DNA of 63,155 nt, counting the filler, from Reclinomonas americana ATCC 50394 (taxonomy: Eukaryota): the NCBI GenBank assembly GCA_048213135.1. It is 19 parts of 19 records of this genome, joined end to end, with 100 filler letters (N's around TTAATTAATTAA, not from the genome) between each part and the next. Parts side by side here need not be neighbours in the genome. Positions count along the whole stretch, not along the records: positions 31,932 to 33,969 come from AFZH01021480.1; positions 34,070 to 36,103 come from AFZH01021481.1; positions 36,204 to 37,635 come from AFZH01021482.1; positions 37,736 to 39,926 come from AFZH01021483.1; 15 more parts are not named here. One strand, given 5' to 3'. Made by a program: the position numbers and the translations under genes. Below are positions 28,763 through 52,232 of the stretch, in pieces (the stretch's first letter is position 1; each line of letters starts with the position of its first letter). The notes under the pieces were generated by a model. The model was not told the DNA's origin. It ran no database searches and was given only the letters and a program-made list of their open reading frames with translations.

Positions 28763-30136
28763 ATGTCGGACGCTCTCCTCGTTGCGTGTGGTGTTCGGGT
28801 CGCTTTTCACCTCTCACTATTTACTGACGGGCGCGCTTCATCATGCACACCTCCGGCTGTTGTAGATGCTAAGTAAAGCGGCGGCCAATGCCGACCCTGC
28901 ACAGCAGCAGCAGCAACAACAACAACAGCAACAACAGGCGGCCATGATGGCGTTCCAGGTGCGCACCCCACAACTCCGTTCGGCGCCCACACTGCTTCTT
29001 CTTCATGCTCACTCTCTCTCTCTCTCTCTCGTGTAGCAACACCGATTCGATCCTATGATGATGATGATGGCGGGAGGTGGCGTCGCGCCCTCTGCTCAGC
29101 AGCAGCAGCAGCAACAGGCGGCCGCATTCATGTCTCTGACACAACAACAGCCTTCCACAAACAGGAATTCACCGCCGGCAAACCCAACCACCTCGGCCAT
29201 GATTGCCGCACAACTGCTCGCCGCACAGCAGCAACAGCAGCAGCAGGCGCCACAGCAGGTGCAGCCTGCGCCGCAGTTTGGAAATGGTGTGTTGTGGGGA
29301 CAAGAAAAAATCGCATCTGTGTGCCCGTTTTCGATATTCTTTTACTCGATCGTCACGGTGTCACGTCTCCTTTTTCTTCTTTTCTTTTCTCATTCCTCGG
29401 CGTGTTGTGCACCGTGTGGCACATTGTGCGTGTACTGCAATGGGGTTTTTTCTCTTTTTTTCCAATTGTTCTGTCGTCTGGAATGATATTCGAACGCCGG
29501 GCGGGGTTATCCTCTCTCTTTCTCTTGCTTCTCCTTCCTTCATTGTGTGGGGTGCGTGTTCGGGGCAAGCTTGTCCTTGAATGCACCATTGCTGACTCTC
29601 CTTTCACACCACACACAGGCGTGTTCGCTCCCCCGCAAGCCTCGTCGGCAGTTGCGGCCGCAGCAGCTGCAGCAGCAGCAGCGTCGCAACAGCAGCAGCA
29701 ACAACAACAACAAGCGGGGGCGGCTTCGTTGTACATGGGCGGCGACATGAGCGTTTCGCCCTTTGCCCAAACGCGCTCGCCCTTGTACGCACAACACCTG
29801 CAACAGCAGCAGCAGCATCAGCAGCAAATGTTCCAGCGACAGCAGCAAGAGTACCAGGCGAGTGCGGCGCGGCGCGCGTCGGCCGAGAGCGCAGCCGCGC
29901 GTGTGTTGCCGCCACTGCCCATGCTTGGTCTCTTTGCGGATCCCTCTCATCAGCAGCAGCAACAGCAACAACAACCACAACAACAGCAGCAGCAGCAGCC
30001 GTCATCGCCCACTCTGCGTCTCAGTCTGTCCTCCATCACCTCCTCCTCCTCGTCGTCATCGTCATCGTCGTCGTCGGCGCCCGCCAGTACCGCCTCAGTG
30101 ATTGCCGCTCTCGGCTCCCCATCGTCGATGATGTCA

Positions 30137-30167
<31 letters not shown>

Positions 30168-31048
30168 TTCTTCTTCAACAGCATCAGCAGTACCAGTTGA
30201 TGCAACAGCAACATCAGCAGCACCAAATGGACATGTCTGCTGCTGCTGCTGCTGGCAATGGTGGTGGTGGCAATGTGCTCGCACAGTACGGCATTCCCAT
30301 GCTGCACCTGCCGAGCATCACACCCATGGCCGCTCCCTACGCCGGACACATGACGTCGTCGACGCCGCTGCTGGGTGGCGGCGACAGCAAGCTCGGCTTG
30401 TTGCACATGCAGTCGCCACCGGCGGCAATTGCAGTGGCCGCGGGTGGTCAGACGGGCCACACGCCAAAACGCGGTCGCGCGGTCGGCATTGATGGCGAGA
30501 CGGCGGGCAGCATGCTGGCACCCACCAAGATGCTGGCCAATCCCACCGACGCAGGCGTGACTCCCAAGAAGCAGAAGCCGTCGGCGGCGGCCGAGATCGA
30601 CTTCACCACACTCTCCACCGACGAGCTGCGCCTGGTCGAGCAGGGTGGTGAGTGGAAGGAGAGGGGGGCGATGAAAAGAGTGGCAGAGGAGAAGCGCTCA
30701 CTTTTCTCTTTCTCGTCTCGCAGTGGCACTGGTGCAGCGGCGCTTTGTTCGTGACCTCCCCGAGCATTTGCGAGAGGCATTTGAGGACGGCAAATCTAGC
30801 GGTCGTTCGCCCAGCATCCGTGGCAGTCGCGACGACTATGTGTTGCGACTCGGCGCGAGTGGCAAGCCAATTCTGCCGCACATGCGTCGGCCGTCGCGTC
30901 GACTGGGTTCGTGTGTGTGTGTGCGCGCGCGAGAGAGGGTTCCCATGCAGCGCACTGACTTTATGTATGCGGGGAAAAAACAGTGCTTCAAATGCTGTCG
31001 CGGGAGCTGGAGGTGCACCTGACGCAGCAAGACCGAGTGTGGAAGGCA
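28763..31048 (+). CDS. PolyQ/Ala/Ser-rich protein with a more ordered C-terminal region, possible transcriptional regulator (3' end not seen)
   Basis: MSDALL|MLSKAAANADPAQQQ... Exons 28763-28780, 28866-28958, 29037-29286, 29619-30647, 30724-30906 and 30984-31048 join in frame through GT-AG introns. Basic NLS-like motifs TPKRGR and TPKKQK. Confidence 0.7.
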
Positions 31049-31790: not shown

Positions 31791-31945
31791 TTCTCGCTTC
31801 TCTCTCTGCGTCCCCCCTCTTCCTCACGCCGNNNNNNNNNNNNNNNNNNNNNNNNNNNNNNNNNNNNNNNNNNNNTTAATTAATTAANNNNNNNNNNNNN
31901 NNNNNNNNNNNNNNNNNNNNNNNNNNNNNNNTCTCTCTCCTCCTT

Positions 31946-32001
<56 letters not shown>

Positions 32002-32583
32002 CTCCCCCTCCTGCTATCCGTTTCGTACGCATTTTCTTTGTCCTGTTGTTCTTGGAAATGCATCACTCTTTGTTCAACTCACCTGTCTGTCTTGTTACAA
32101 TTCCTCACTTCTATTGCCTTCTTGTATCCTCCGCCTGTCATTCCACTTCCATCCGATCTGCACACTCCTTCTTCTCTCTGTCGTCTGTCATTTACACAAA
32201 CCCTCAATTCATCCTGGTGCATAGTGTTACCGTGCATCCTGCGGCTGTCATTGCATCTTCCCATCCGGTCTTCTTACACACTCGTTTCCTTCACGCCGCC
32301 GTCTGCCTAATACTGAGTTCTTTTTCCTGCCCCTCGTATGTGCCTCATATCCATTGCCGTCTGCACTCTTTACTCGCGAGGCTCCGTCTCCCTGGTTTAC
32401 ACCTCATTCTTTTCTCTGGCTGCTCGTCTTCCATGTTCTCTTTCTCCCTACCTTAACTCCTATTTCTTTTTTTCTCTCCTTTCCCTTCCTCTCTACCCCT
32501 CTCACATCCTCCCCCTCTCTCCTCCCTTTCCCTCTTTCCTCCCTTCCCCCCTTCCACCTTCCCCTCTCACCCCTTTTCTGCAG

Positions 32584-35500
32584 GCGGCTCACCGGCAACC
32601 GGCAGCTCTCTGGTGCTGGCCAGTGGCGGCGCTGCTCGCCTCACGGCACCATCCACATCGACGACGCCAGTGACAATACACAACAGTCTGAGTGTGGCCG
32701 GCACCGAGTTCCGTCTGGGTTTGGGCACGAGCGCGGCCGATGCGGCCACCGCGCGAGCCATGATTGTGAGCAGTCGCCAGTTGAACATTAATCCGTTGCG
32801 TCAAGATTGTTTGTTGTTGCTGTTGTTGCCTTACATGTCATGTCCTCGAAGAGCTCACTGCGCGCGCTCCAGATTCTCTGACTTTTCGCAAGTCGGCATT
32901 GGTCAGACTGCGGTGCGCATTTACGAGACGCCATCGCCACTCAATTGCACCATGGTGGTGCGTGGCGGCATCTCGGCGAGTCTCGGGTCACCGTCGGACA
33001 TTATCGATGGTGGTTTTACGGTTGGCACGGGATCCGGCACTGGCATGTACACGCCCATTGGTTGCGTCCCGCCATTGCTTCTCTCTCCCTCGTTTTTAGT
33101 CTCACCGCCGCCTCTTCATTGACGCCCCGTAGGTTCCGAGGATTTGGTCTTCTACATCAAGGGGCGTGTGCGCATGCGTATTCGCGACCAGGGCGGCGTC
33201 GACTACATTGGCGCCGCGCTTTCGTACGAATTCAACTCGTTCAAATTCGGCAGTCCACAGCGTCTGGCCATGTCGGCGGACGGCATCGACTCCAACACGC
33301 TGAGCAGCGACAATGCACTCCATTTCAATCCTGCCAACGAGTTTGCCGACGGCATTACCATTGGGTGTGTGCCATTTCTCTTTTTCCAAGCCATCCTTTC
33401 GTTCTCTTGTGACTGCTGATGAACTGACTTGCTTGGTTCGGTTGGGAAAATCAGATGGCCATCACTGTCGCTGGTCTCGACGGCCGGCATCAGCTCTCTG
33501 ACGGTTAATGGTGGCGTGCGTGCGCGAGTTGGTCTCCCTCCTCCCCTCGGCGCGCACTATGATGTCGGCTTTGGATTCATGACCGATCTCCCAACCGGCG
33601 TTTATGTCGACAGTTTCGTGCTCGGGTGCACGCTGCAGCTCGCAACAAAATCTCTCGTGTGCTGACACTCTTCTCGTGCGATAGGTGCGACAGTGGGTGA
33701 CCTCGTTGGTGTCTCGTCGGGCGTGGAAGTACTGCGCTTCACCACTGTGTCGGGAGAACCCAGTGTGCAATTCAATTCTCGCACGCTACTCACTGGCGAC
33801 TCCATGTCCAACTTGCACATGGCCGACGGCTTTTCCAACCTTTACTTTTCCTCCGATCGTGTGGTGCGTGCGTACATAGTGAGAAGCCGTCAAGATTACA
33901 ATGTCATGACTCGCACAACAGATCGTGAGCGGCACTTCTGGCTTTGTGGGCGTCGGCGTGTCCACCCCGNNNNNNNNNNNNNNNNNNNNNNNNNNNNNNN
34001 NNNNNNNNNNNNNTTAATTAATTAANNNNNNNNNNNNNNNNNNNNNNNNNNNNNNNNNNNNNNNNNNNNGTCTCTGTTCAACATGCCGCTCATCGAGCTG
34101 GTGTCTCCATCGTCGGTGCGATTGGCGTACGGATGTGACGACATTTTCTTCCGCGATACGGCAGTCTTGACCAAGGCCGGGCGGCTGGGGGTGGGGGTGA
34201 TGAGTCCCCGTGCTCGCGTTCACAGTGCAGGAGGCGTGCAATCTGCTCGCGGCCTGCCAAACAGCGCCTCGCTCTCCGATGTCGGTTTCGCCTTTAATCA
34301 GCTAGCCTCCACGGGTCTCTTTGCGAGCGGTGAGAAGCGCCTGTGAAGGCTCTTGTTCCTTAGCATCGTCTCTTGCATTCGCTCAACGGGGAGTCTTGCG
34401 CAGCCACCGACCCTGTGAGCCTGGTTGTGATGCTCAGTGGGACGACACGAGTTTCCATTCCGGATATCAGTCTTGGTCCACTGACGCTTGTCGGCAACAC
34501 GTTGATCGACGGCACAACCCTCTTTTTGGATTCTCAGGCATTCGGCCAGTCGGAAGACTCAAAGGCCAGATTACGCGTGGGTGGTGGATACTCAGAGGTG
34601 GTGTGGAAGGACGACCGAATGGTTTGTTGCTGTCTGTGGTGTGGTGCGCGCGCACTTACATCGTCGCCCTCCCTTACATGCCTGATGTCGGCTGGCGCAG
34701 ATTCTGACGCGAAACAAGCACTATTTGGGTGTGGGTGTATTGTCACCGGCTGGCACCATCCACTCGGCGGGTTCCGTGCGCGCTGCATTCGGCACACCAT
34801 CTGTGGCGTCCTCCAATGTCGGCTTTGCATTCGAATCGACTGGAAACACCGGCTTGTTTGCCTACGGTTTGTCACCTGACCACTCATGTGCACATTTATT
34901 TCCTCGAGTGTTTCTAATTTTTTGTGTGCATGTTCTCCACTATCAGGGAGCCCCGTGAATCTGCACCTGGCTGTCAACTCAGCCTCGCGTATTCAAATAC
35001 CGGACTTGGCGTCGCCAGTGATTGTGCATGGTGATTTGTCAGTTGACGGCAACTCCTTGAGGTTGGGAACGGCCGGTTCCGGGAATCCGCTTGCGCTGCA
35101 GTACCGATCGATAGACGGCCAGCTGCTGGTCAACCCCACCTTGGATGCACCGTTGGGTATTGTGTTTGGCCAGGATCACATGCGATTGGACACGAGTGGC
35201 ACCGGTCGACTCGGAGTTGGACTTGGCGGAGGTGTTGGCCTTGCACCACAGGTTACGTACGTGTTCTGTTGATGTATGTGTCTTGCGGGAAGAAGGAAGA
35301 GGGGGAGGGGAGCAAAGGGACAGAAGTAAGCAAGCGAAGGGTGGGGTTTTCATGTTGCTGTGCGGTCTCCAGTGAGTCGCCTTTTGGCTTCTCAGCTGTT
35401 ATCCTCCAATGCACCATTCACGTCTCTCGTCATTCCTTTAGTGTCACATCTCTTCGTTTCTGTCATCCCATTCCTTGTTACTTTGCTCAATTTCTTTGTC

Positions 35501-38500
35501 GTAGTCACCACTCACTCGTTCTCCTTCTCCCTTCTCTCTCCCTTCGCCTCTCCCCCTTTGCTCTTCCCCCTTTGCTCTTCCCCCTTTGCTCTTCCCCCTT
35601 TGCTCTTCCCCCTTTGCTCATCCCCCTTCGCTCTTCCCCCTTCGCTCTTCCCCCTTCGCTCTTCCCCCTTTGCTCTTCCCCCTTTGCTCTTCCCCTTTGC
35701 TCTTCCCCCCTTTGCTCATCCCCCTGTGTTCATCCCCCTTCACTCTTCCCCTTTGCTCATCCCCCTGTGCTCTTCCCTCTTCACTACCATTCACTCATTC
35801 TCCTCCCTGCGATCTCTTCTCTCTTCCCTCTATCCGCTCTTCCCCCCCTTCGCCACAGTCCACCATCCACTCTGGCGGCGGTGTTCGCGCGAGTAAGGGA
35901 CTTGGGTCGAACGATTCAAGCGACGTTGGCTTTGCTTTTGCTGGCGACGGCAACACGGGCATGTTTGCTGACGGAGGTAAGTAGCCCTGCAGTCTCTCTC
36001 CTCTTGGACATTCTCAAGCACACGTTTCCGTTTGCGCGCAGGTGACAACACATCAGGCAGCTCTCTAGCATTGTCGGCCGACGGAAGGGTCCGATTGCGC
36101 ATTNNNNNNNNNNNNNNNNNNNNNNNNNNNNNNNNNNNNNNNNNNNNTTAATTAATTAANNNNNNNNNNNNNNNNNNNNNNNNNNNNNNNNNNNNNNNNN
36201 NNNCTACAGGTGCTCCCTCTCTCCCTCCCTCCCTTCTCCCCCACTCCTCCGCTCTCCACTCATCTGTGCGCTTGGCAGGCACTGGCGTCTCTGGGAGCTC
36301 CTTGGTTCTGCAAGTCGACGGCGTCTCTCGCATTCAAGTGCCTCCCGTTGGCGGCGCCGTGTCCATCAGTGGCGATGTCTCGATTGCGTCAACTCGACTG
36401 TCGTTGGGCACACCAGCTCGAGTGGTGTTGCAGACACAAGACGCTCTTGGTCTTTTGTCTCTCAATCCCGGTTCGTCGACGCCTCATTGCTTCGAATGCC
36501 CCCTTGCAGCAACCACACTGATTGCCTGTGTTGTTCTGTGATAAAAATCGCGCAGGCAATGCGTTCGAGAATGGCATCGTGTTTGGCGACAACCAGATGA
36601 TTTTGAGTTCGACAGGCACTGGTCGTCTTGGAGTCGGCAGTGCTCTGGCGCTGGCGCCGGAGGCCACGCTGCATTCGGCAGGAGGTTTGTGCGTGCGAGG
36701 GAGAGAGCCGTGTTGTGAATCAGTTGTTTACTTGCGCGGGCGTAGGTGTACGAGCGGCCAAGGGTCTCTCTGGTGGCAACAGCGGCGATGTGGGCTTTGC
36801 GTTTGCCAAGGACGGCGACACTGGCTTGTTTGCATCTGGAGGTTGTGTTTTTTTTCTTTCTCACCATTCCTTTGCGTGTGCGCGTGGTGTCTCACACGAT
36901 TGCGCTCTTTGATAGGCACAAGTTCTGACACCAGCTCCCTCTCGCTGGTCATTGACGGATCGCAGCGCCTGCTGATTCCCAGCGACACGAGTGCCTCTGT
37001 GGCGCTCTCCCAGTCGCTCCTGGTTGGCGGCGGCTCGGTTGCCGTGGGCACCAGCAACCGCGTCGCTCTGTCGTACAATTCTGCCACTGATATTCTGGGC
37101 ATTAACTCCTCGCTGGCGTTCACTGGCGGCGTGGCGTTCGGCGGCAGCCAAATGTTCCTGCGCACCTCTGATGGTCGCTTGGCAGTGGGGTCATCGTTGC
37201 GTTTGTGTTGCCCGACTCCGACGTCTCATTTCCCACTCTCATCAGTCTCCCGCCATCAGTCTCGGAAACAACCCACTGGCCACAATTCATGCGGCTGGCG
37301 GTGTGCGCGCGGCGAAGGGTGTGATTCCTGCGTCAAACAGCGGAGACGCAGGGTACGCCTTTGACAGCGATGGGGATACTGGTCTGTTTGCCGTGGGTGG
37401 GACGACCGCCAATGGCAGTGACATGGTGCTGGCGGTGGACGGAGTTGCACGCATCCAAATGCCCAACTCACTCGCCAGCAACGTAATTATCACTGGTGGT
37501 GGCTTGTCGATTCTCGGCTCTTCGCTGCAGTTGGGCGCGGGAGGACGCTCGCCGCTGTTTTTCGATTCGGCAACCGATGTACTGCACATCAATTTCGGCG
37601 CGGCCTACACTGGTGGCGTCAATGTGGCCGGAGGANNNNNNNNNNNNNNNNNNNNNNNNNNNNNNNNNNNNNNNNNNNNTTAATTAATTAANNNNNNNNN
37701 NNNNNNNNNNNNNNNNNNNNNNNNNNNNNNNNNNNTTTCTCGTTCGGCGCGTACGGTGATAGCGGCCTGTACATGACTGGTGCGTCTGCTGTTCCAGTGC
37801 GATCTCTGGACGCCCCCTTTCAGTTTTTCACTCACCTCTGTATCGTGTTGTTTTAGCCGCGGCGTCAGTGGGCGATTTGGTGATGAGCATTGGTGGAGTT
37901 AGCCGGCTGCGTATACCGGCGGATTCGTTGCTGCCAGTCACGGTGTTTGGCACGCTAGACGTACAGCAAAACAGCGTGCGCGTGGGTGGAGTATCTCTGG
38001 CCGGCACAGTCGGCTCTGTAATTCGCCTTGGTAGCGATGCTTCGCAAGTCTTCCTCGGGCCGGATGCGTTGGTGTGTGTTGTCGAGAAATTCGCTGTTGA
38101 GTCCTTGTTCGTTGGGTGACACGGTTGCCATTTTTTTACAGATGGTTGCCTCTACGGGTTTGGTCGGTATTGGCACAAGTGCGCCAGGCACTCAGCTGCA
38201 CGTGCTGGGTGGTGTGCGTGCGGGACGTGGGGCGACAGCATCCAACGCCGGCTTTTCGTTTGACGGAGCCGCGGGCACTGGCATGTTCTCAACATCAGCG
38301 ACGAACAACTTGTCGCTCACGGTGGATTCGACCACCCGCTTGTTCATTCCAACCAGTGTCATTGATGCTATCGCCCTGACTGGTTCGCTGTCGGTGTCGG
38401 GGTCGGCCATCAGCCTTGCTGGCGCTCCCCTCGCTACTATTGGGCTGGCATCATCGGTGTCCTTTGTCCCATCTGCCATCGGAGACATTACGTGGCGCGC

Positions 38501-39926
38501 AAATTCTCCGACGTTGGCCATGGTCCTTTCCAGCTCTGGTCGGCTGGGTATTGGTATTGGGGCGCCTGTCACTCGCTTGCATGTTGCCGGCGGCGTTCAA
38601 GTGGCACAGGGTGACCCGGCTGGCGGCAGCCTCGATGTTGGTGTATCGTTCCAGGGTCCAAGTGGCGCCACTGGTCTGTTCTCCCCTGTGACTACGGCCG
38701 CCGACTTGGCGCTGCGTGTGAACGGTGTAAATCGGCTCTATGTGCCCAGCCTTGCCGCTACAGCTGTCACCGTCACTGGTGATGTGGCAATCACTGGCTC
38801 CACAATCACTCTCGGTACTGCGCCGCTGGCATCGTTCGCTGCATCTGTGCTCGTTATCGGCGGTGGTACCCAGGAGATGCGCTGGGGCGCCACGCCGACT
38901 CGCATGACTCTTCTCAGCGGTGGAGCTCTTGGAGTGGGCACCAGCGCACCACGTGGCCGTCTCGAAGTAGCTGGCGGCGTGCGTGCAAGCCGTGGCATTC
39001 CAGCCTCCACTGCCGACGACTTTGGTTTTTCGTTTGAGAGCTTCGGTTCTACTGGACTGTTCTGCGACTCTGTGAGTGGGACATCGTGCAACCTCGTGGT
39101 GCAAGTTGGTGGAACTCCGCGGATCACCGTGCCCGCAACATCACCCTCAACCATTAGCATGACGGGCAATCTCGCCATCTCTGAGACCACTGTATCCCTG
39201 GCCTCGAGCGCGGTACTCGAGGCGCTTAGTACAGCGCCGAATGCTGGTGGTCTCCGCGTTGGAGGTGGCTTCACGGGCAACATACTCGTGGCGAGTCGTG
39301 CCGTGTTCACTGGCGCAGGCTGGCTCGGTGTAGGTACGCTGGCCCCTGAAGCGTCGCTGCACACAGTCGGCGGCGTGCGAGCCGGCAAGGGTTCGCCGCC
39401 CGTTGCCGGCAATAGTGGAAATGTGGGATACTCGTTTACTGGTGACGGTGACACTGGCATGTTTGCCAGCACCAGCGCCGGCGTTGGTACCAGCTTGATG
39501 TTCCTCATCGACAATGTGTCGAAACTGCGAATCGACGCCTTTGCCAGCACGGTGCTCAGCATGGCCGGTGATGTCGATGTGGCCTCTCCGGGATCGAAGC
39601 TGTCCGTCAACTCGAAGAGTGCACTGGAACTCGAATTCGGTACGCAGCTGACCATTGGTCGTGAGTTTGCTGCGGCGGTCGTCGCCGCCAGCAGCGTGTC
39701 AATCGGTCAACTGGGTATGACGTCGACCCAGACGGTTATTGTCAGCTGCGTATATGCTGCATTTCGCTCGTCATCTCTTTCACGTCGTGTATTCACGTAC
39801 TGTATCGTGCAGACGCGACCACAAGTGTCTCTGTCAATACTGCTGTCGTCCGAGTCGGGAGCGCCGCCGGGCAAGTGCTGCGTCTCACTCCTGGAGTGCC
39901 GTTCGTCGTCGACCTGGATGCCGTGG
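32584..39926 (+). CDS. Multi-exon Gly/Val/Ser-rich beta-fibre protein with >=12 tail-fibre-like repeats (partial at both ends)
   Basis: Repeat of about 120 aa: 'GRLGVGxxxPxAxLHxAGGVRAxKGxP...SxDVGFxFxxDGDTGLFA...LxLxVDGxxRLxIP'. Visible in ORF 38028-39974 and in spliced exons at 34170, 34700, 35200, 36620 and 37170. Introns are GT-AG. Confidence 0.85.
35550..35775 (+). repeat. Intronic 14-nt minisatellite CCCCTTTGCTCTTC
   Basis: Tandem near-perfect copies. Confidence 0.92.
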
Positions 39927-40026
39927 NNNNNNNNNNNNNNNNNNNNNNNNNNNNNNNNNNNNNNNNNNNNTTAATTAATTAANNNNNNNNNNNNNNNNNN
40001 NNNNNNNNNNNNNNNNNNNNNNNNNN

Positions 40027-41446: not shown

Positions 41447-41516
41447 CGTGTGTGTGTGTGTGTTGTGTGTTCGTGTGTGTGTGTTCGTGTGTGTGTGAGA
41501 GAGTGAGCTGTGTGTG

Positions 41517-41606
<90 letters not shown>
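41447..41606. repeat. (TG)n microsatellite, probable mis-join point
   Basis: Long TG run between the signal-peptide exon and a mid-protein DNA-PKcs exon. Confidence 0.9.
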
Positions 41607-41611
41607 ACCAG

Positions 41612-44600
41612 TTGCAATCGCACTACGTCAGCAAGATTGGCATTCTGCAGCTGCTCGAGGCGCTGTATACGACTGTCGACCACGAAGACATCAAATCGAC
41701 CGTCAACAAGGCCTACATGCGCGACAATCCAGCAGCCAAGGGCACCGAGCTCACCGGTGCCGTTGCGTTTATTGTTCCCTTCTTCTTCCATGGTGTGTGT
41801 ACGCACCGGTCGCTAACCCACGCCGCAGATCATGAAAAAGATGCTGGAGACGCTGGGCGAACGAGTTCCCTTTGCCGAGGTGGAACTGGTCGGCCACGTG
41901 CTCGAGCACAAGGTGTGTTCCATCATCCGCTGTCGGCTTTAGTGTGTCGGCGACTCTGACTGCGCAGTGGCACAGTTCAAGTGCGCCGCCTACAACGCCC
42001 TCGCTGCGTGCATCTGCACACAAACAAAGCCGCAGCTGTACGAGGCCACCGTCCTCAAACCCGATCACTTTGACGAGATTGTGGATCCGCAGGAGGCGTA
42101 CCACTTTGAGGTGCGGCGTGCTCACTGCGAGTGTACGATTGCCTCTGCTGACAATGTGTCTGTTAGGCCGAAACGGACTTTGCGTACACACGCAAGTCGG
42201 TGGCCTCGCTGAAGGAACGACTGCCGGACGACCTGCGCGACACGCGCGAGTACTTGTCATTTGAGTACTTCAAGGGCACCATGACGCAGGATGCAAACGC
42301 GTTCTTCGCTCACTCGTCTCTTTCCGTCGACCCCGAGGGCTCGCTGAAGGGCATGTTTGTGGTCAACAAGATGGCGCACGCCACCGTGTTTCGTTTGCTT
42401 CCCCTCGCCTACGTGTGCATGAACGGGCTTGAGTACTGATTCGTGTCACGCAGTACCGAGTCAGGCGACACGCAAGTGATTGAGGGCTTTGAGGAGAAGC
42501 TCGAAATGGACCCCGTCAACCTCAATCCGTCAATGTTCTCGGTGCTGCGCAGCATCGACCGCATGGCGGTCATTACCAAGGATGAGCCTCGGTGCGGCCC
42601 ACTGTCGACCTGTGTGCGCAATGCTTCGTCTGTATCTTCGCCCTCACGGATTGCATGCATGTCTGTGCAGTACCGACGTGCTGCCAAAATGGCAAGCTGG
42701 TCTCTTCCAGAAGATGCGCGACGAGGAGACGCACCAGAATGTCAAGCTGTTCATCGCAAAGGTGTGTCGGTGTGGGTCTCCATCCACTGCTAACCACTGC
42801 TGACGACGTGCTGCAGCTGATTCTCTTGCGGTCGGCCGTATTTGCGCCGTATGCCGGCGACTGGATGGGCCCGCTCGCCGCAGTGGCCACCTCGGATGCG
42901 TTTGGCACGGTCTGCATTGCTCGCCTTTTGTGCGGTTGGCACGCACATGTCCCAGCTCACTCTGTGTACTCGCACAGGGCCTGCACTACTTCAAACGCGA
43001 TGTCGCTCTCCAGTTGCTGGAGTGGAGTGCCGATGTTCCGCGCAATTCGACAACGGCGCGCCTCCTGAGTGCCTTTGTGCAAAACCTCATGCGCAACTGC
43101 GTGCATCTGCGTTACCAGGTGCTCATCGCCAACATCAACATTATTCGGTTCATGGTGGAGCGCTGGTCCGAAGTGCTGTCTGTCAATACGGCGGTGTGTG
43201 CATATGTGTGCATGGCGACGTGGCGGAAGCATGATGTACTCACACAGTCACACGCGACGACAGTTGCTCTCGACCTTGCTCCAACCAGACGCCGCCATGC
43301 CAGCAGCCGACGAGCGGCAAACGCGTGTCACTGGTCTCCACTTGCTGGCGGTGTGTGTGTATCGCATGTGGCCTTTGTTCCTGTCATCTTCATCGTTGGT
43401 CTCACCATGATGCAGATCTATCTGGCCAACGACATTCCGGTGTTTGATGTGCTCGCCGACTCGCCGGACGCGTTTCAAGTGTTCCTCGATGTGGTTTCGT
43501 GGCGCCAGAATGCTCCGTGTCGCTCGCTTGTCGTTTGCCGCTGACCGTCGACTCCACAGGTGGCACGCAATGTGGCGCACTTGCAAAAGCGCGTGTACGA
43601 GCCGGCGGCTGAGGTGTGCGGTCTGCTGATTGAGCATTTGCACAAGCTGGCGGGTGTGTGAACGACATTGTGTTGTTCCCAATTGATTGCCACACACCCA
43701 CATCCTCGATGCACTGTGCTGCAGCCTTCGACATGGCGACGCACTTGTCGCAGCGCGTGACTGCATTCGTACGGGAGGCGTATCAGAAGAGCGATTACTC
43801 GCGCTTCCTCAACCAGCTCAACAAGATCAGTCTGCACTCGCCGCGCATGCTGGAGGCATTTGTGACGCAAGTGCAAGACACGGTGCCGAAGTTGCACGGC
43901 AGCTACCGGTGCGTCGTGCCGATCGTCATCATCGTTCTTCCCACAGTTTTGTTGTTGCTCACCACTCTGTTTCGTGCACAGAGGCATTGCGCTGGCGATT
44001 TTGTCTCGTCGCGCCGACCAGATTCCCAACATGTACCTGTATCTGCAGCCAAATCTGGAGCGCTTCTTGGTGCTGCACGATCCCGACACGCAACAATCGG
44101 TGCTGCGCGTACTCCTCGCGTTGTTGCGGGTGAGTGCGGGCGTGGAGAAGAGTGAGTGATACAGAAAAGCTCACTCGCGATGCAGGTGGCCACGCTCGAC
44201 GACCTGACGCACATGTTGCGTGTGCTCGATCGGTGCACGGCCGACCGGGATGTGTTCCTGTTGCGTTTCATTTGTGCTTGCTTGTGAAGGTGCAGTATTG
44301 ACTGTTGCTTGCGAATACCAGTGTCCAATTCGACGAACCCACACGCCTGCTCTTGTGCGATGTGTTCATCTGGCTGCATGACAATCGGCGTGACTTGCCT
44401 CCCGATCTGCGTCAGACGGTGCACAATAATCTGTTGCGTGCCACTCCTCTGCTTTCCGCCCCCAAGTCCTTTCATCGTTCATTCTCACAGTCGTGCATGG
44501 TTAGTTTGCGTGCATTGGCCGACGACGGCTCCGAGAAAGTGCGCGATCGCGCGTTTGCGTTTTGGGACAACCCCGAGCGCCTGTCACCGGCCATCAACGA

Positions 44601-47600
44601 GAGGACACAGCAGGTGTTTGAGAAGTTGTACTCGTCCGACTCGTCCCCAGTGTGGCTGCGCATGTCGGCGGCATTGCTGCTGTCGCTGCCGAGAACGGCG
44701 CCCGACTACACCGAGAAGACCGTCTTCAACAAGGGTGCGGTGACGGCGAAGAACCTTGGGATCGATATTTGAGCATGCAGTCGCTTACTTTGTTGTTGGG
44801 GGTGCCGCAGAGCCACTGTTCCAGTGCGAGTTCCGCGAGTACAACATTAGCATTTCCGACGAGACGCGCACGTCGACTCTGCGCCCGCTATTTGGCGGCG
44901 GCAGCTTTGTGGGTGTCGACGCACATGCGGTGTGTGATGCACACATGGTTAGATGTCAGGAGCACAGGCTCATTGCTCGCTCGCACAGGGTGGTGGTGCA
45001 TCGCAGAATCTAGGCGATATTGGCATGCTTCTGGCCACTCCACAGTCGGTGCGGCTGTCAGTGCATGTGTGCATTGACGTGTCGTCACACGCACGCAGTA
45101 CTCACTGTGTATGCTGAGTGCAGGCGACTCAAGGTGGCACCAATTCGTATGGCATGTCCTTCTCCATGACCAGTCTGCTGATCGAGCCAAACAAGCGAGG
45201 TGTGAACGACACGCAGAGAGTGCTTGCTGTCGACTTGTCAATCAATTCTTGCGCCCCTCGCAGTGTCGCCATTTGCCCGATCGGCGGCGGCCGCTGAAGC
45301 GAGCCGTGCTGCTGGCGCCTCTCCGTCCATGGGTCCTCCGGGAGCTGCGCCGTCGTCGGCACTCAATGCCACTCTGCCGGAGGGCTTTGCGCGGCAGCAG
45401 CGCTCGGNNNNNNNNNNNNNNNNNNNNNNNNNNNNNNNNNNNNNNNNNNNNTTAATTAATTAANNNNNNNNNNNNNNNNNNNNNNNNNNNNNNNNNNNNN
45501 NNNNNNNAGGCAGAACTGGGATGGGGAGGCATTGTGCATCACTCACTCGATTCGTTGTGTTGCAGGTGGCGGTGGTGCGCCAGTATCGCTCCGGCGAGTT
45601 GCCCGACATTCAGATTTCGATGCGCGATCTTGTCGAGCCACTGCTGGTACTGGTGATGCGGTGAGTTGGTCGTCGCGCGTCGTCGGAAGTCTTGCGGGAC
45701 TCGCATTCACTCACCATGTGTATGTTACAGCGACACGTCGGTGGCCCGCTTCCTGTTGACGATGATGTTCCAGAAGGTGGTGGACGTGGTTCGCGGCAGT
45801 AATCGACTGGGCGTCGAGCGCTATTACGAGCTCGTGTCGGCGGTGCAGAGCGTCATCTCCTCCAAGATGCTGACCTCGGGCGAGGTACGAAGGCCTCCAA
45901 ATCTCGTTCATCTTTTCGTCACTCACCTGTCCCCGTTTGTGCGCAGCTCAATGCACAGCTGGTGGCCTTTGTGCACTCGCTGTGCCTGGCTGTGGAGGAA
46001 CTGGAAGTGGATCCAGTCAAGGTCGCCGACTCGTCGACGAGGACGACCAACTTCCACCTTGGTTTGTGATAGAGGGGGAGAGCATTCCTCCACTCTGTTG
46101 GACCATCCTCATCCATCTTCTCCTCTCCCATCCTCTCACGCACCACAGGCGTGCTTCTTCTCGAGAATCGGTACGCCCGTGGCTTGGAGGAGTTGGAGCG
46201 TGTTCGATCTGCCCCACCGCCCAAGAAGCGCGCTCGTGGCAGCGACCCGACGTTGCGTCACGTGTGTGTGTTGATGTGAACGCGAACAAAACAACTCACT
46301 GCTCCACAGTCGTCGTGCACTGGCACAAGCGCCTTCGCTCGGATCGATGCTGTCCGAGTCACCGACTCTCGCTTCCTCGGGCACACTGACGGAGGAGGAC
46401 CTGCAGCGCAGCAAGCTGATCGCCGATGCGGCCGAGCACTTGGATGAGGCTGTGCTGTGGCGCAAGGTTATGAGGCACTCTCTCACACAGCCACTGCTGC
46501 GTATCGCTTACCGTGTGTTTTTGGCAGCTGTCTGAACTGTACAACCACCTTGGCAATGAGGACGTTGTCACGCACATTTACAAGAGTCACGTGGCCGCCG
46601 AGTCACAGGAGGCTCAGGTGGCCCTCGACTTTTTCTTTGCCAGCGAGTACAACGAGTCGCGGGAGCAGTTTGCAGCGTTGCGTGGCCAGTGTGGTGCGTG
46701 TTACGAATGCATGATGCTGACAAGAGAGGGGTTGGAAACAGAGCACTGGAGAGGGAGGATCCTGCCTCGCCCAATGCGGCCATTTGGAAATCGTTGCGTG
46801 CATGACGTGTTAATGGTGGCCTGTTGCACGTGATCCACTCACATACCCCTATCGTGCGGCAGCATGTGGAGATCGTGCTGTGCGAGGCTGGGCGACTGGG
46901 ACCAGATTGCCGACGACTGGGTGGCAGCGTCATCCGGCGGTCAGCAGCTGCGGCAACTGTTTGATGACAGCGCCCCCATCCCGCTGGCCGAAGCGGTGCA
47001 GTCGATTGTGCGCGCCGAGGGACACGACGATGTGATGCAACGGTGCGCACGACGGAACAAATTGCATGCTGCGGCAGCTCGCTGACTCTGTGCATGGGGC
47101 AGATTGCTGGACTTGGCCAATCGCGATCCGCAGTGCCGACAGAAACTCGAGGATGTCAGCAGTCGCGATCTTGCCCTGTTTATCATCAAGCAAGGCAGTC
47201 GCGAACAGCAGGCGATTGAATATGTTCGCAAGTTGCGTCACCAACGAATGTGTTTTGTTTTGTGCACTCCATCCACTCGATTGCTCATGTTGCGGTGGTT
47301 GGCAGATTTGAGCAGGGCTTCTTGGAGGACTGGACTCTGCTGCCGACGCTGAATGAGCGTGGCCGCATTTCACTGCTGCAATCGGTGCAAGAGGCGGTGG
47401 AAGTCGATGAGTACTTGTCGTTGTTCCGCGTGCATGAGATCACAAAGCCGGCAGAACGCGCGTCGTTGGTTCGTCGTCTGCTTGCACGATGGCACAATCG
47501 CTTCCCCTCTCGCTCCCTTGACTCTACATCGGTGTGGGCCTCGGTGCTGTCGACGCGTGTCCTCTTGCTCGAGCGCCTCTCGGCCAAGATCGAGACATTT

Positions 47601-50176
47601 GTTGGTGACGCCGAGGGCGCTGTCGCCGCAAATCTGGACGACAGCGGCGTCGCGGCGGATGGCGAGGAGCCCGTCGATCTGGTCGGCGATCTGCAAGATT
47701 TGTGCGAGGCGGAAATTGTGCATGCGCGGCTGGAGACGGCCGACGCTGCGTTGCAGCAAGGGAATGCGGAGCTTGCCGCCACCGTGTGCAACGAAGTCAA
47801 AAAGGTATGGCTGTTTGTGTTGGTGGAAATAATTGTGGGTTCTCCCATGCCAATCCTCGCCGATTGCAGCAACGTTCGTTCGCGACGGTGCGACGCACCT
47901 ATCCGTTCCTGGTTAGCGCCATTCGCCACTCCACCATTCAGGCACTCAAGTTCGACGGTCCCAGTGTGGAGGAGGCCTCGTTGCGTGCTATTCGCTTTCT
48001 CTGTGCTGCTTCTTCAGCATGAGCTCACTGCCTCTGGGCGATAGATCGCGCTTCAAGAATTTGCGTCTGGTGGCCTCGACCTTGGAGAAGACGGTCGACA
48101 CGGAAGCGCTTCGCGAGCCGCGGACACACGTCGCGTACTTGACGTTGTATGCGTCGACCATGAAGTTTCGTTTCACACCACTATCGGGGAGTTTTTGCAC
48201 GTGCGCTTACCTGCGTGGCGCCTGCAGCACCTATGCCGAGCAAGTGGGAACCCTGGACGATGACATCAGGCCAGATGTGGAGCGCGAGATCAAGGCTGCG
48301 GTGCCGGCGGCATCGGACCTCCGACTGAAGGCACAGCAAATGTACCAGCAGGCCGTGACGGAGCTCGGCGAATTGTTGACCGGCAAGAATCCGAGTTGCG
48401 ATGGATAGCGCGCACTGTTGCTGTTAGTGGTCGCGTTTACTCACCTCACACCGCAGGCNNNNNNNNNNNNNNNNNNNNNNNNNNNNNNNNNNNNNNNNNN
48501 NNTTAATTAATTAANNNNNNNNNNNNNNNNNNNNNNNNNNNNNNNNNNNNNNNNNNNNCGACTGGCTGCCGACTACCCGCAGGCCATGTACTACCCGCTG
48601 CGCATCTCCGAGGAGGCCATCAACGCCACACGACACTGTTCGCGCGAGGTGAAGACCGCCTTTGCCGAGATGATGGAACTGACGGAGATGCCGCAGCTGG
48701 CCATTTTCACCCGTGGCCTCTCGCGCCTCGACAACCCCGAGCTGAGGTGAGACATGCGCTGGTGAAGGCGAATGTGGTGGCAGCTCACGCAACATGGCGC
48801 AGGTGGAAGCACATTTGGGTACCGGCCATTACCGACTGCCTGGCAAATGGCAAGGGAGCAGAGCAGGTGACGATGGAGACGCACTCCGCTCATGTCCATT
48901 CCTCTCCTCTCCTTCTCATCGCATATTTTTGCATCAGTTGCGCCGTATTTTCGACGAGGCGCGCCGCGACTGCCTCGTGCGCGATGGAGAGGATCCGGGG
49001 TTCATCAACGACCAGTTTGCCGAAAAGATCGGTGTCGAGATTCTGCAGGTGACTATTGATTCGCCAAGATTGCTGGTGGTTGTCGTCACTGACCGATGGT
49101 GTATATATATATGTAAGACCACTGGCGATCACGGACAACGACTGAAAGCCGATACTGCACGGCGTGTGGCGGAGATCTTTGAGCATGTGGACCCGGCGGC
49201 ACGGGCGCTCTTTATCGATCCGTCCGGTCGTCTCGGTCCATTGTATCAAGGTTGCGTGTATTTCTCTGGGCGACAGAATCTGTGTATTCCATCCATAACT
49301 CTGTGAGGGCGCGTGCGCAGGTCACCTCAAGATGCGCGACTTTAGTCACGCGCTGGCCAAGTACCAGGCGCGCATCGGTGAGCCGACAGTCGACATGCCG
49401 GGCCAGTACACTGGCGACGCGGCGCCGCAACCCGACGAACTCGTCAAGGTGTGCGGGAACTGGCGAGTATGGAGAAAAGACTGCACTCTCTCACTGCTGT
49501 GCGTGTGAGGGTAGATTATCTGCTTCGGGCAGTTTGTGCGACTGCTGCCGTCCATTCGCAAGCCGAAGCGCATCACGGTGTTTGGCAGTGATCAGCGCGA
49601 GTATCGGTTCCTTGTCAAGGGTGGAGAAGATTTGAGGCAGGATCAGCGGATCAGTGAGGTGGGTAGGAGGGGGAAGGGGGTAGGAGGGGGGAGGAGGGGA
49701 GGGAGGATAAGTAGGGAAGGGAGTTTATTCTGGTTTGTTGTGTTGTGTTGTGTTGTTGTTGCTGGTTGTGTTGCGAAGGGAGTAGAAGATATGCAAAGAG
49801 CCGAACAGAAGGAGATTGCTTGTCGGTGTTTTCTTGTTGTTGCTGCCATTCGTCCTTTGCTGTCGCTGCTGGTGGTGTGGTGAAGAGCAGATAAATGGGA
49901 GCAGCAGACCTAAGAGTGTTTGTTGTCAGCGTAGACCCTGATGTTGGCATTCATACGTTGTGATGAAGAGAGCAGAAGATGACCTAAGAGAAACACGTTT
50001 GCTGTCGATGTTGTTCCTGTTGTTGTTATCTTGTACGTTGCTGCAGTTGTTCATGGTGGTTGTAATGGAGTGAGCTGAAGAAGAGATTGAAGTTTCGATG
50101 TTGGTTTGATGTGCCATGCTTGTTAACAGTCGGCATCGGCGTTGCTGCTGCTGCTGTTGTTGTTGTTGTTGTTGGG

Positions 50177-50238
<62 letters not shown>

Positions 50239-50241
50239 GGG

Positions 50242-50273
<32 letters not shown>

Positions 50274-52177
50274 ATTGTTGTAGTAGTAGTCGTCGTGCCT
50301 CTCTGTGACTTGCTCTCAGTGCATGTGTTTCGTTGTCATCGCTGCTGTTGTCCTTGTTGACAGCGACGTTGTCTACCCTCTGGCGACTGACATTCAGTGA
50401 CATTCATGTTGCTGTTGTGCCACCCGGCTGACTTGATCGCTCACGCAGTTGTTCCGCACGATGAACGCCATCTACAATCGAGTGGCCGACACGCAGAAGC
50501 GCAGCGCCAGCATCATGTGCTACCAGATCATTCCCATGTCGACGGTTTGTCAGCAGTGCTCCAATTGATATGGTTTCCACGCGCGTGCGTGACCACCTCC
50601 CTTTTCTATTTGATGCACAGCGCGTGGGCATCATTGAGTGGGTGGACAACACAGAACCCATCCAGTCGCTGATGGAGTCGATCAAGGGTGTTCGCGGTTG
50701 CGTACCCCCCGCCGCAAAATCGCGCACACCACGCACTGCTCTCACTGCTGCGCAGAGGCAACCGGTCTGGCAAATCAGGTCGACCAGAAGGAGATGGGCA
50801 ACGCTGGTCCCGCCTACATGTCCAAGGCGCTGCCGTCGTTCGATGCCACCATGCTGACGAAGCACCAGACAGAGCGCGACTTCTATCCTCGGTTTGTTGG
50901 GGAGACTCCTGCAGATGCATATGTGAGGCGCGCGCTAAACGCATGCACCACGCAGCGACATTATTGTGCAAGCTTTGCGGCAGCGGTCGTCATCCCCCGA
51001 GGCCTTTTTCGTGTTGCGACAGCGATTCATCGACTCGCTGGCCGTTCTGACCATTTCTGGGTATGTGGTCGGTTTGGGTGATCGCCATTTGGACAACTTG
51101 CTGGTGCACACCAAGGTCAGTTTTGCCAGCGCGTTGTGATACAATCAAAACAAAACTGTTGGTGCTGATGTGGTGGTTGACGCCAGAGTGCGCGACTGAT
51201 GCCCATCGACTTTGGCCATGCTTTCGGGTCGGCAACAGAGGTGTTGCCGGTGCCGGAGATTGTCCCGGTTCGCCTGACCAACCAGTTTGTGCGGTACGTG
51301 GTGGTGAAGGGCGATTATTCTTGCTTCGCAATGTTGTCACCGATTCTCTCTCTCTTGCAAACACAATCAGTGTGTGCGAACCGGTGGGCATTGATGGCAC
51401 TCTCAAACCGATCATGGTGCGCTGCATGCAAGCGCTGCGCGCCCACCGCCACGTGCTGCTGCGCATTCTGGAACTCTTTGTTCAGGAGCCGCTGCTCGAT
51501 TGGCTGCAGCATGCGGAGAAGGTTCTGTTGCGAAAGACTCTCGTTTGTCGCCAGCATGGAGCTCACATCCTTCTTGCAGGTTCATCAACGGCGCATCGCA
51601 GCAGTCAAGGACGCTGGAGGCCGAGCGGAGGAGCAAGCAGAGGATGAGGTGGAGGATGAGGAGGACATGGATGTGGATGACCGACCGGAAAGGTTTGAAG
51701 GGAGGAGGAGAGGGAGAGAGGGAGAGAGGGAAAGGGAAAGTGTCGGAGCGACTGACGTCACCGACTCATTGCAGCGGAGCGGCGTGGTTTGCGCGTCGGC
51801 GAGTGGAGATTGCGCGACGAAAGCTGCTGCTCTACAATCCCGCTCACTTGTTGATGGAGGAAGTCGAGGCCAATCGTCACGTGCAGGCGTGGAGCCGCAA
51901 CGTGACCAAGACGGCGGCCGCCAGACTCAAGCATCACAACATTATCGAGGCCTACCGCGATGTGCGTATATTTATGGCGATATAACGATTCGGCACACTG
52001 ACTGGTGTGTGACGTCTCTTGCAGCTGGTGCTGGGCGAGCGAAGTGGCAACTCGGACAGGAGTCGGTTCCCGCAAGTGTGTCACTCGGTCGAGGAGCAAG
52101 TGCACTGCCTCGTCGATCTGGCCACGGATCCACTCGTGCTGGGTCGCATGTGGGGCGGCTGGCGCGCGTGGTTGTAG
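41612..52177 (+). CDS. PRKDC: DNA-dependent protein kinase catalytic subunit, C-terminal half (multi-exon, two gaps)
   Basis: Family motifs 'GTELT', 'CAAYN', 'YRSGELPDIQI', 'YPQAMYYP', 'KPKRITVFGSDQREYRFLVKGGEDLRQDQRI', 'GDRHLDN', 'IDFGHAFGSATEVLPVPEIVPVRLT' and FATC 'QVHCLVDLATDPLVLGRMWGGWRAWL*'. Confidence 0.95.
50157..50281. repeat. (GTT)n trinucleotide microsatellite in a PRKDC kinase-domain intron
   Basis: Read directly from the sequence. Confidence 0.95.
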
Positions 52178-52232
52178 CGACGAGAAGAGCAATGCATTCT
52201 CGTGCCATTTGTTGTTGATGAATGTTGAGAGT

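Follow-up and report, generated by a model that had tools for sequence, protein, structure and literature searches.

Trimeric β-helical fibres that share a common sequence motif are known as attachment devices of phages, predatory bacteria and viruses that infect protists. Here we describe a gene from the protist Reclinomonas americana ATCC 50394 (NCBI GenBank assembly GCA_048213135.1) whose product appears to follow the same plan. The gene lies in a stretch of 63,155 nucleotides, filler included (hereafter the window), which is made up of 19 contigs of a draft scaffold with 18 linkers between them, all alike and 100 nt long (a 12-nt six-frame stop flanked on each side by 44 N); all positions count along this window. 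Its sequenced part runs from 32584 to 39926 on the plus strand, open at both ends, and it is probably a cellular, spliced eukaryotic gene that encodes a trimeric β-helical fibre of tail-fibre ancestry, with at least 1,679 codons and at least 15 repeat units.

Four kinds of described system invite comparison. The mosaic adhesive trimeric (MAT) fibres of Bdellovibrio bacteriovorus, which include Bd2133, Bd3182 and Bd1334, have been solved structurally (PDB 8ond, 8ojn, 8oml and 8on4; Caulton et al. 2024, PMC10769870). According to the available portions of that report, they are trimeric, intertwined β-helices composed of modules of ~95-135 residues with recurring capping loops (V-G-G/N-pi-x-x-P-x-x-x-L), and their C-terminal ends carry either an S74 chaperone or other tips (PMC10769870). 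The MAT proteins are bacterial and intronless, of ~1,000 residues, with a signal peptide and a conserved β-rich N-terminal domain of ~130 residues ahead of the shaft. Phage tail fibres that end in an S74 domain (Pfam PF13884) are likewise encoded by intronless genes, here of prokaryotic viruses. The S74 chaperone is a C-terminal domain with a Ser-Lys dyad (S-D-x3-K) that cleaves itself off after trimerisation. In eukaryotic genomic DNA, very long modular fibres of phage or bacterial ancestry have been described from polinton-like viruses (PLVs) and giant viruses: integrated protist PLVs encode modular fibres of up to 3.9 k residues that end in S74, some of them with BppL_N (PMC12220804), and a chaperone of endosialidase is listed among the adhesion genes of giant-virus islands (PMC13620141). 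These are viral genes within elements of 14-40 kb, and the portions of the two reports at hand mention neither the repeat described below nor introns (PMC12220804, PMC13620141). Finally, MYRF and MrfA are membrane-tethered eukaryotic transcription factors with an S74-type domain and provide a precedent, namely a trimerising element derived from a phage tailspike within a cellular protein of eukaryotes (PMC3828593); the MAT capping-loop motif is stated to match MyRF also (Caulton et al., PMC10769870). The literature found holds viral fibres in protist genomes and the single S74 of MYRF, and no spliced cellular gene of this shaft module, which is not proof that none is in print.

A spliced array of shaft units

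The gene occupies four contigs (31932-33969, 34070-36103, 36204-37635 and 37736-39926) that contain the fibre gene only, and it is cut by the linkers at 31832-31931, 33970-34069, 36104-36203, 37636-37735 and 39927-40026, each of 100 nt, the last of which hides its 3' end. Both gene ends are absent from the window, because base 32584 is the first after the CAG acceptor of an intron that reaches into a gap and base 39926 is the last before a linker. The order of contigs depends on whatever scaffolding was used, and the fixed length of the linkers (3198-3297, 31832-31931 and 39927-40026 are examples) conceals the true gap sizes.

A profile hidden Markov model (HMM) of the repeat unit was made from four intronless repeats (38145-39725) and run on all stop-to-stop fragments in six frames of the whole window. 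Sixteen coding pieces were recognised at E<1e-3, all on the plus strand and spread from 32595 to 39725; elsewhere in the window no repeat was found (best score outside the region E=1.3, with one minus-strand row inside it at E 1.9). The repeat is real, is restricted to this locus and is well beyond chance. In the spliced products the profile finds 15 units, 13 of them at independent E-values of 4.2e-7 or below, one at 7.9e-10 and one, a 12-residue stub at a contig end, at 0.24; nine units reach E<=1e-22. The unit is ~128 residues long. Its first ~75 residues comprise, in order, a G-x-L-G-V-G..P...L-H-V loop, G-G-V-R-A..G, G-F/Y-S/A-F..D-G-D-T-G-L/M-F and a strand ending in R-L/I-x-I/V-P, whilst the last ~50 form an extension that is complete only in eukaryote-like relatives. 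The consensus of the unit alignments reads G-x-L-G-V-G..P...L-H-V-x-G-G-V-R-A..G in its first block, G-F-S-F....T-G-L-F in its second and L-x-L-x-V-D-G..R-L..P in its third. The longest open stretch (38142-39737) encodes 532 residues with four head-to-tail units of ~128 residues, all complete and intronless: unit 12 (38145-38522, E 5e-43), unit 13 (38526-38909, E 6e-45), unit 14 (38910-39305) and unit 15 (39306-39725), the last two being the halves of the piece modelled as a trimer below. Antisense open reading frames (ORFs) at 38451-39706 on the minus strand were rejected, having neither profile nor family support.

Exon borders were set by coordinate and verified by translation, and removal of 16 predicted introns leaves all four contigs free of stop codons (338+376+355+610 = 1,679 codons). 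Every one of these introns starts with GT, 11 end in CAG and 5 in TAG; 15 are 58-90 nt long and one is 607 nt, and the pyrimidine content of the sense strand is 65% in introns and 52% in exons. Splicing restores contiguous profile matches, such that one unit covers positions 1-126 with a score of 142 where its unspliced pieces score 55 and 22. Prokaryotic contamination was rejected on the strength of the introns. The first contig carries a coding block at 32584-33969 (exons 32584-32794, 32873-33060, 33133-33364, 33455-33612, 33685-33863 and 33922-33969; 338 codons) with units 1-4, namely a C-terminal half (unit 1), two degenerate copies (units 2 and 3) and one cut by the gap (unit 4). Units 5-7, the last again gap-cut, lie in the block of the second contig at 34070-36103 (exons 34070-34329, 34404-34621, 34701-34866, 34947-35251, 35859-35976 and 36042-36103; 376 codons), and units 8-10, the first of which starts in the gap, in that of the third at 36279-37635 (exons 36279-36470, 36556-36684, 36746-36841, 36916-37189 and 37260-37635; 355 codons). 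On the fourth contig the block at 37736-39714 (exons 37736-37779, 37857-38071 and 38142-39714 or beyond; 610 codons) encodes unit 11 followed by the four intronless units. The remaining 3' stretch, 39715-39926, is either a 98-nt GT-AG intron (39715-39812) with a fibre-like exon running into the gap, or read-through. The junctions 32794/32873 and 33612/33685 were picked among enumerated GT-AG options and are the least certain. The sequence-only reading of this window had placed the gene at the same coordinates, which prove exact (acceptor CAG before the start, linker after the end), and had described at least 12 repeats of about 120 residues with three motif blocks, split by GT-AG introns; all three blocks are in the consensus, the count after splicing is 15 units of ~128 residues, and the stop-free frames and contiguous profile matches bear out the introns.

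Seven of the 16 introns fall at the same place in the unit, profile position 53/54 in phase 1, directly after the T-G-L/M-F-x-x stretch. They are found at 33061-33132 (72 nt; after T-G-x-F/Y-x-x, position ~54), 33613-33684 (72 nt; 53/54), 34330-34403 (74 nt; 53/54), 34867-34946 (80 nt; 53/54), 35977-36041 (65 nt; 54), 36842-36915 (74 nt; 54) and 37780-37856 (77 nt; 53/54). This position and phase apparently hold as well for two gap-truncated introns, which end at 32583 and 36278; the former would account for the pyrimidine-rich stretch 31932-32583, which ends in CAG and is probably the downstream portion of an intron that begins inside the gap or on its far side. The other nine introns are scattered in position and phase: 32795-32872 (78 nt, phase 2, after an L-N-I-N-P motif, with read-through also possible), 33365-33454 (90 nt, phase 2), 33864-33921 (58 nt, phase 0), 34622-34700 (79 nt, phase 0, profile position 125/126), 35252-35858 (607 nt, phase 0, position 15/16), 36471-36555 (85 nt, phase 1, after L-N-P), 36685-36745 (61 nt, phase 1, position 22/23), 37190-37259 (70 nt, phase 2, position 9/10) and 38072-38141 (70 nt, phase 0, between units 11 and 12). 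The 607-nt intron contains, at 35551-35781, 16.6 copies of a 14-nt tandem repeat (88% match). Because 7/16 introns share one profile position in phase 1, the unit would have been amplified after it had gained the recurrent intron, most simply by tandem duplication, within a spliced genome, of a unit in which that intron was already present. The recurrent intron is present neither in unit 10 nor in the last four units; the 3' units either lost it or came from an intron-less copy.

Relatives among phage, bacterial and eukaryote-like proteins

When the 532-residue exon was compared with PHROGs, six families were matched, three of which are annotated as tail fibre (families 18345, 9942 and 2097), with best E-values of 5.8e-12 and 3.2e-8. 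Sequence matches in the PDB were to Bdellovibrio MAT fibre chains only (2/2 with the single protein and 4/4 with the profile, best 2.2e-6). The stretch aligned to these chains is G-x-V/L-G-I/V-G..P...L-H/E-V, which occurs three times in the Bd2133 chain at spacings near 113 and 72 residues, and the MAT capping loop would correspond to this motif. In viral contigs of IMG/VR the G-V-R..K-G..G-Y-x-F..D-G-D-T-G block is encoded by 7 contigs at 40-65% identity. In two of them (L002 and L004) the ORF that bears it, itself a PHROG tail fibre, lies directly downstream of baseplate hub and wedge genes, and in a third (L005) the tape-measure gene and one more large ORF precede it. In pairwise BLASTP, a phage tail-fibre ORF was 61% identical over 33 residues (E 3e-8), and a second comparison gave 29% over 89 residues (E 6e-9).

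A profile search of 1.84 billion representative proteins returned 14,944 matches at E<=1e-3, 2,004 at E<=1e-10 and 39 at E<=1e-30, with E-values down to 1e-115. At the top stand giant proteins (1.2-7.5 k residues) in which the profile matches as many as 52 stretches; most single-repeat matches span just 25-75 profile positions. Pfam assigned a C-terminal Peptidase_S74 to 6 of the 18 top matches, one of which (P0008) also has BppL_N, and Gp34_trimer to one. An S74 HMM of our own, made from six Pfam-confirmed S74 ends, matched 52 of the best 150 relatives, together with P0003 from a single-sequence homologue search. That search found, at near lengths, at least 4 matches, including an S74-bearing protein 53% identical over the motif; at longer lengths there was none among the 8000 candidates considered, which is weak evidence given a saturated word filter. 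Most of the S74 giants carry a shorter unit of ~70 residues. By eye, five of the matched proteins (P0007, P0008, P0010, P0012 and P0017) were seen to have a common short N-terminal F-x-D...G-D-x-L/I stretch followed by ~70-residue units, and hexapeptide or bactofilin-like β-helix segments occur in some giant fibre matches (P0012). The three blocks stand in the same order in phage, bacterial and eukaryote-like proteins. Judged by sequence, phage tail fibres, S74-terminated giant fibres and MAT fibres have a shaft module homologous to the first ~75 residues of the unit.

The full 128-residue unit, including an L-x-I-N-P..F..G-V-x-F-G tail, was found in 8 of the best 150 matches (P0019, P0038, P0040, P0041, P0047, P0103, P0106 and P0127). 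All eight, which resemble fragments from eukaryotes, end in, or are broken by, pyrimidine-coded junk, as is expected if a prokaryote-style gene caller runs into introns. In 4 of the 8 the match breaks off at profile position 54-55, a short way before the end of the protein, and P0019 and P0103 have an unaligned insert at the same position; these breaks fit an intron at the same place in the relatives, and the full-unit family is thus probably established in at least one eukaryotic lineage. In metagenome contigs a unit-alignment pattern gave 598 pattern matches with 0 confirmed; the exon itself found two short contigs at 38% identity, and a scan of genome contigs with P0013 yielded one weak and uninformative locus, in a Chitinophaga metagenome-assembled genome, at 26% identity and outside the repeat.

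A predicted trimer of intertwined chains

Three copies of units 14-15 (272 residues each) were modelled together, and the runs gave values of the interface score ipSAE of 0.74, 0.81 and 0.81 (median 0.81); the best of 3 controls reached 0.00. Partner chains had a predicted local distance difference test score (pLDDT) of 73 or higher, and 88% or more of the contacts were common to the runs. The mark used for this score was reached by 21/30 solved one-chain pairs and 0/23 single chains in a calibration that employed two copies, not three. More than 1,000 contacts run along all 272 residues of the model, and they include contacts between the same residue of different copies (for example 40-40, 174-174 and 184-184), as expected on a three-fold axis and in keeping with an intertwined fibre.

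The sequence-only reading had further held that the repeats resemble phage and bacterial fibres, that they would form a trimeric β-fibre and that such shafts often precede an S74 chaperone. The likeness is borne out by the PHROG families, the MAT chains in the PDB and the viral tail-fibre ORFs behind baseplate genes, and the trimer by the predicted structure just described. The link to S74 holds for the relatives; in the window itself no S74 domain was found, the 3' end of the gene being in a gap. None of the three outcomes that it had named as contrary to it was encountered (matches to a known eukaryotic family only, no homologues among phage or bacterial fibres, failure to model as a trimer), and its overall interpretation is supported.

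Comparison with described fibre systems

The likeness to MAT fibres consists of the loop-motif match to four chains and the modelled trimer (0.81 against 0.00), with a fold search that agrees only weakly (Z 4.5, tied); the loop is placed on the structure by inference from the description in PMC10769870. Unlike the MAT genes, the Reclinomonas gene is spliced, and it comprises at least 15 near-regular units with an extra block (G-G-V-R-A..G..G-F-S-F..D-G-D-T-G-x-F) that is matched weakly by the MAT chains; with its ends in gaps, the comparison covers the shaft only. With S74 tail fibres it shares shaft repeats that carry the G-x-V/I-G-I/V-G..P...L-H-V motif, and with phage tail fibres more generally the G-V-R-x-x-K-G..G-Y-x-F..D-G-D-T-G-x-F/Y block, which is found in ORFs that follow baseplate or tape-measure genes. 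In the phage genes this block usually occurs once, a few times or in a ~70-residue unit, whereas the present gene has 16 GT-AG introns and is accompanied by a DNA-PKcs gene and low-complexity eukaryotic ORFs, not by a tail or baseplate module. It differs from the fibres of PLVs and giant viruses in being spliced, in having been amplified after intron gain and in the absence of viral neighbours from the window. MYRF, in turn, has one S74 (intramolecular chaperone auto-processing, ICA) region, an Ndt80-type DNA-binding domain and a transmembrane helix and no long array of shaft units; neither S74 nor an Ndt80-type domain was found in the sequenced part of the fibre gene by Pfam on exon-bearing ORFs and our own S74 HMM. 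The product would work like a MAT fibre or the shaft of a phage tail fibre, yet it is not to be filed under either family, because the defining ends lie in gaps and the genomic context is not that of a phage or virus.

A model of the fibre and its origin

In the model that we favour, three chains would intertwine round a three-fold axis, each unit forming one β-helical module that opens with the G-V/I-G..P...L loop. With the solved Bd3182 module as the yardstick (60 A in height for 135 residues), a rod of 15 units would measure ~90 nm. The missing 3' end may encode a tip, possibly an S74 chaperone, and the product would be an extracellular or surface adhesive fibre. The source of the shaft module would have been a phage, a bacterium or a eukaryotic virus; once in the lineage, the module would have acquired an intron after the T-G-x-F motif and would subsequently have been amplified in tandem; transfer into eukaryotes is suggested because the module is very widespread in prokaryotes and viruses, against a handful of eukaryote-like matches. 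A polinton-like or giant virus is a plausible donor. The proposal of the sequence-only reading that a fibre module was amplified and intronised stands in so far as 7/16 introns agree in position and phase. A further suggestion, which we would advance as possible though not as the better bet, is that a protist lineage owns a spliced gene family whose ancestors were receptor-binding fibres, either of phages or of viruses of that lineage, and in which the module was lengthened (to ~128 residues), gained an intron and was amplified to rods of at least 15 modules.

A number of observations weigh against the interpretation as a cellular trimeric fibre of tail-fibre ancestry. With both ends of the gene in gaps, a surface fibre cannot be backed by a signal peptide, an anchor, a tip or an S74 domain, and our S74 HMM found nothing in the six frames of the window (best E=2), the gene's 3' end being in the gap at 39927. 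Neither Pfam nor NCBIfam recognised a family in the 532-residue exon, and tblastn of the exon against 50,697 phage records gave nothing at 1e-3. The success of the trimer model may reflect the model's memory of solved fibres, the unit alignment not having been used as input, and an AlphaFold2 monomer of two units was all-β but poor (mean pLDDT 55.3, predicted template modelling score 0.31), as is expected for an obligate trimer. Foldseek of this monomer against the PDB gave 0 matches at E<=1e-3, the top rows being phage tail fibres at a non-significant E of 1.6-5, and a wide fold search with VIA gave 0 chains at Z>=5; its first rank was the Bd3182 fibre (Z 4.5, root-mean-square deviation 3.8, 59 residues aligned), which is tied with unrelated chains and not significant. 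Units 1-3 on the first contig are degenerate, with branches of 3.6 in the repeat tree. That tree, made of 30 units and leaving out those with fewer than ~55 profile positions, is poorly supported (2/27 inner branches): bacterial or phage-like units stand apart (93/91) and three intronless units group together (85/91), both below the support mark, and neither duplication order nor donor is readable from it. Lastly, the gene is tied to host genes solely through fixed-length scaffold linkers. The DNA-PKcs domains downstream begin with CC3 at ~41.5 kb, and the N-terminal half of that protein is not present between the fibre gene and this point, so that either the linker at 39927-40026 conceals the fibre 3' end together with roughly half of DNA-PKcs, or the contigs have been put in the wrong order.

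The main rival holds that the gene is not a host gene at all and is instead the host-attachment fibre of an endogenised eukaryotic virus of the polinton-like or giant kind. We regard this as unlikely. In its favour, the integrated PLVs and giant-virus islands cited above carry such modular fibres and chaperones, the top match P0008 combines BppL_N with S74, the most similar full-length proteins are giants (1.2-7.5 k residues) that end in S74, look-alikes in the atlas are labelled viral (a lead only), and the four contigs hold no other gene. Against it, the 16 introns are of spliceosomal type and of the same short GT-AG kind as those of the neighbouring DNA-PKcs gene, and amplification following intron gain implies long residence in a spliced genome. 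The G+C content at third codon positions (GC3) resembles that of the neighbours (0.60-0.63 in the fibre exons, 0.60-0.73 in the DNA-PKcs gene), the unit is ~128 residues long where that of the S74 giants is mostly ~70, and a scan of viral contigs with P0008 gave no relative. Moreover, Pfam on 65 ORFs of the window returned DNA-PKcs domains, FAT, PI3/PI4 kinase and weak TIG and Trypsin_2 matches and no viral hallmark or phage family; capsid, packaging ATPase and integrase families in particular were not among them.

Decay of a once-transferred fibre gene that no longer yields a functional protein, the mis-scaffolding of the contigs and convergence are each less likely than endogenisation. That the gene is a relic seems improbable: the degeneracy and long branches of units 1-3 would fit, as would the two junctions that needed weak donors or allow read-through, but after splicing 1,679 stop-free codons extend over all four contigs, the motif columns are preserved among units, nine of these still score at E<=1e-22 and the two units tested model confidently as a trimer. 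The four contigs could also have been mis-scaffolded or come from another eukaryote in the sample, which would make the context an artefact and leave the gene real. Every join is a fixed 100-nt linker, and that to DNA-PKcs is incomplete; nevertheless, four consecutive contigs share the same gene, orientation and reading order, and they agree with the remainder of the window in intron style, pyrimidine-rich introns, TC microsatellites and GC3, which makes this explanation decidedly doubtful. Hardest of all to credit is convergence, that is, β repeats rich in glycine and small residues that arose independently in eukaryotes. The composition (rich in G, S, A, T and V), the lack of a Pfam family and the shortness of most single-repeat matches would suit it; E-values to 1e-115, the identities to a phage tail-fibre ORF (61% over 33 residues) and to an S74-bearing protein (53% over the motif) and the same three ordered blocks in phage, bacterial and eukaryote-like proteins do not.

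Genomic surroundings

The gene downstream of the fibre, at 41507-52215 on the plus strand, is a DNA-PKcs gene with CC3, CC5, FAT and PI3/PI4-kinase matches and short GT-AG introns. Upstream, a long plus-strand ORF at 28877-30754 has poly-Q, poly-S and poly-A runs and a weak SR-25 match (E 0.0034), and is probably a separate gene for a low-complexity nuclear protein. A second large repetitive gene occupies 1-21450 on the minus strand, where near-identical ORF sets recur every ~6.5 kb (2205-2804 / 8907-9515 / 15425-15994 and 4098-4628 / 11563-12072 / 18515-19000); by eye, its ORFs resemble NHL or β-propeller-type blades with IPT/TIG-like modules, and Pfam gave a weak TIG match at 106-582 (E 0.0049). 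At 54395-55030 on the minus strand there is a weak match to Trypsin_2 (trypsin-like peptidase; E 3.2e-4), under the Pfam cut-off. TC and CA microsatellites are frequent across the whole window, and scans of it with Rfam and for tRNA genes gave no match.

Significance

If the gene is what we take it to be, it would provide a clear case, beside the single S74 of MYRF, of a viral or bacterial adhesion module that has been taken over and rebuilt by a eukaryote, and the fact that its tandem amplification can be dated relative to intron gain adds to its interest. Should the intron position be shared with the fragmentary relatives, the domestication would be old and not a recent insertion. The intronless 1.6-kb exon (38142-39714) is ready for expression and structural work, and the predicted product is a concrete protein to seek among protist surface fibres, hairs and extrusive organelles. 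As a domesticated fibre, it may serve as a cell-surface adhesin for prey or substrate, or may compete with viral fibres, or act as a decoy, at the receptors on which these rely.

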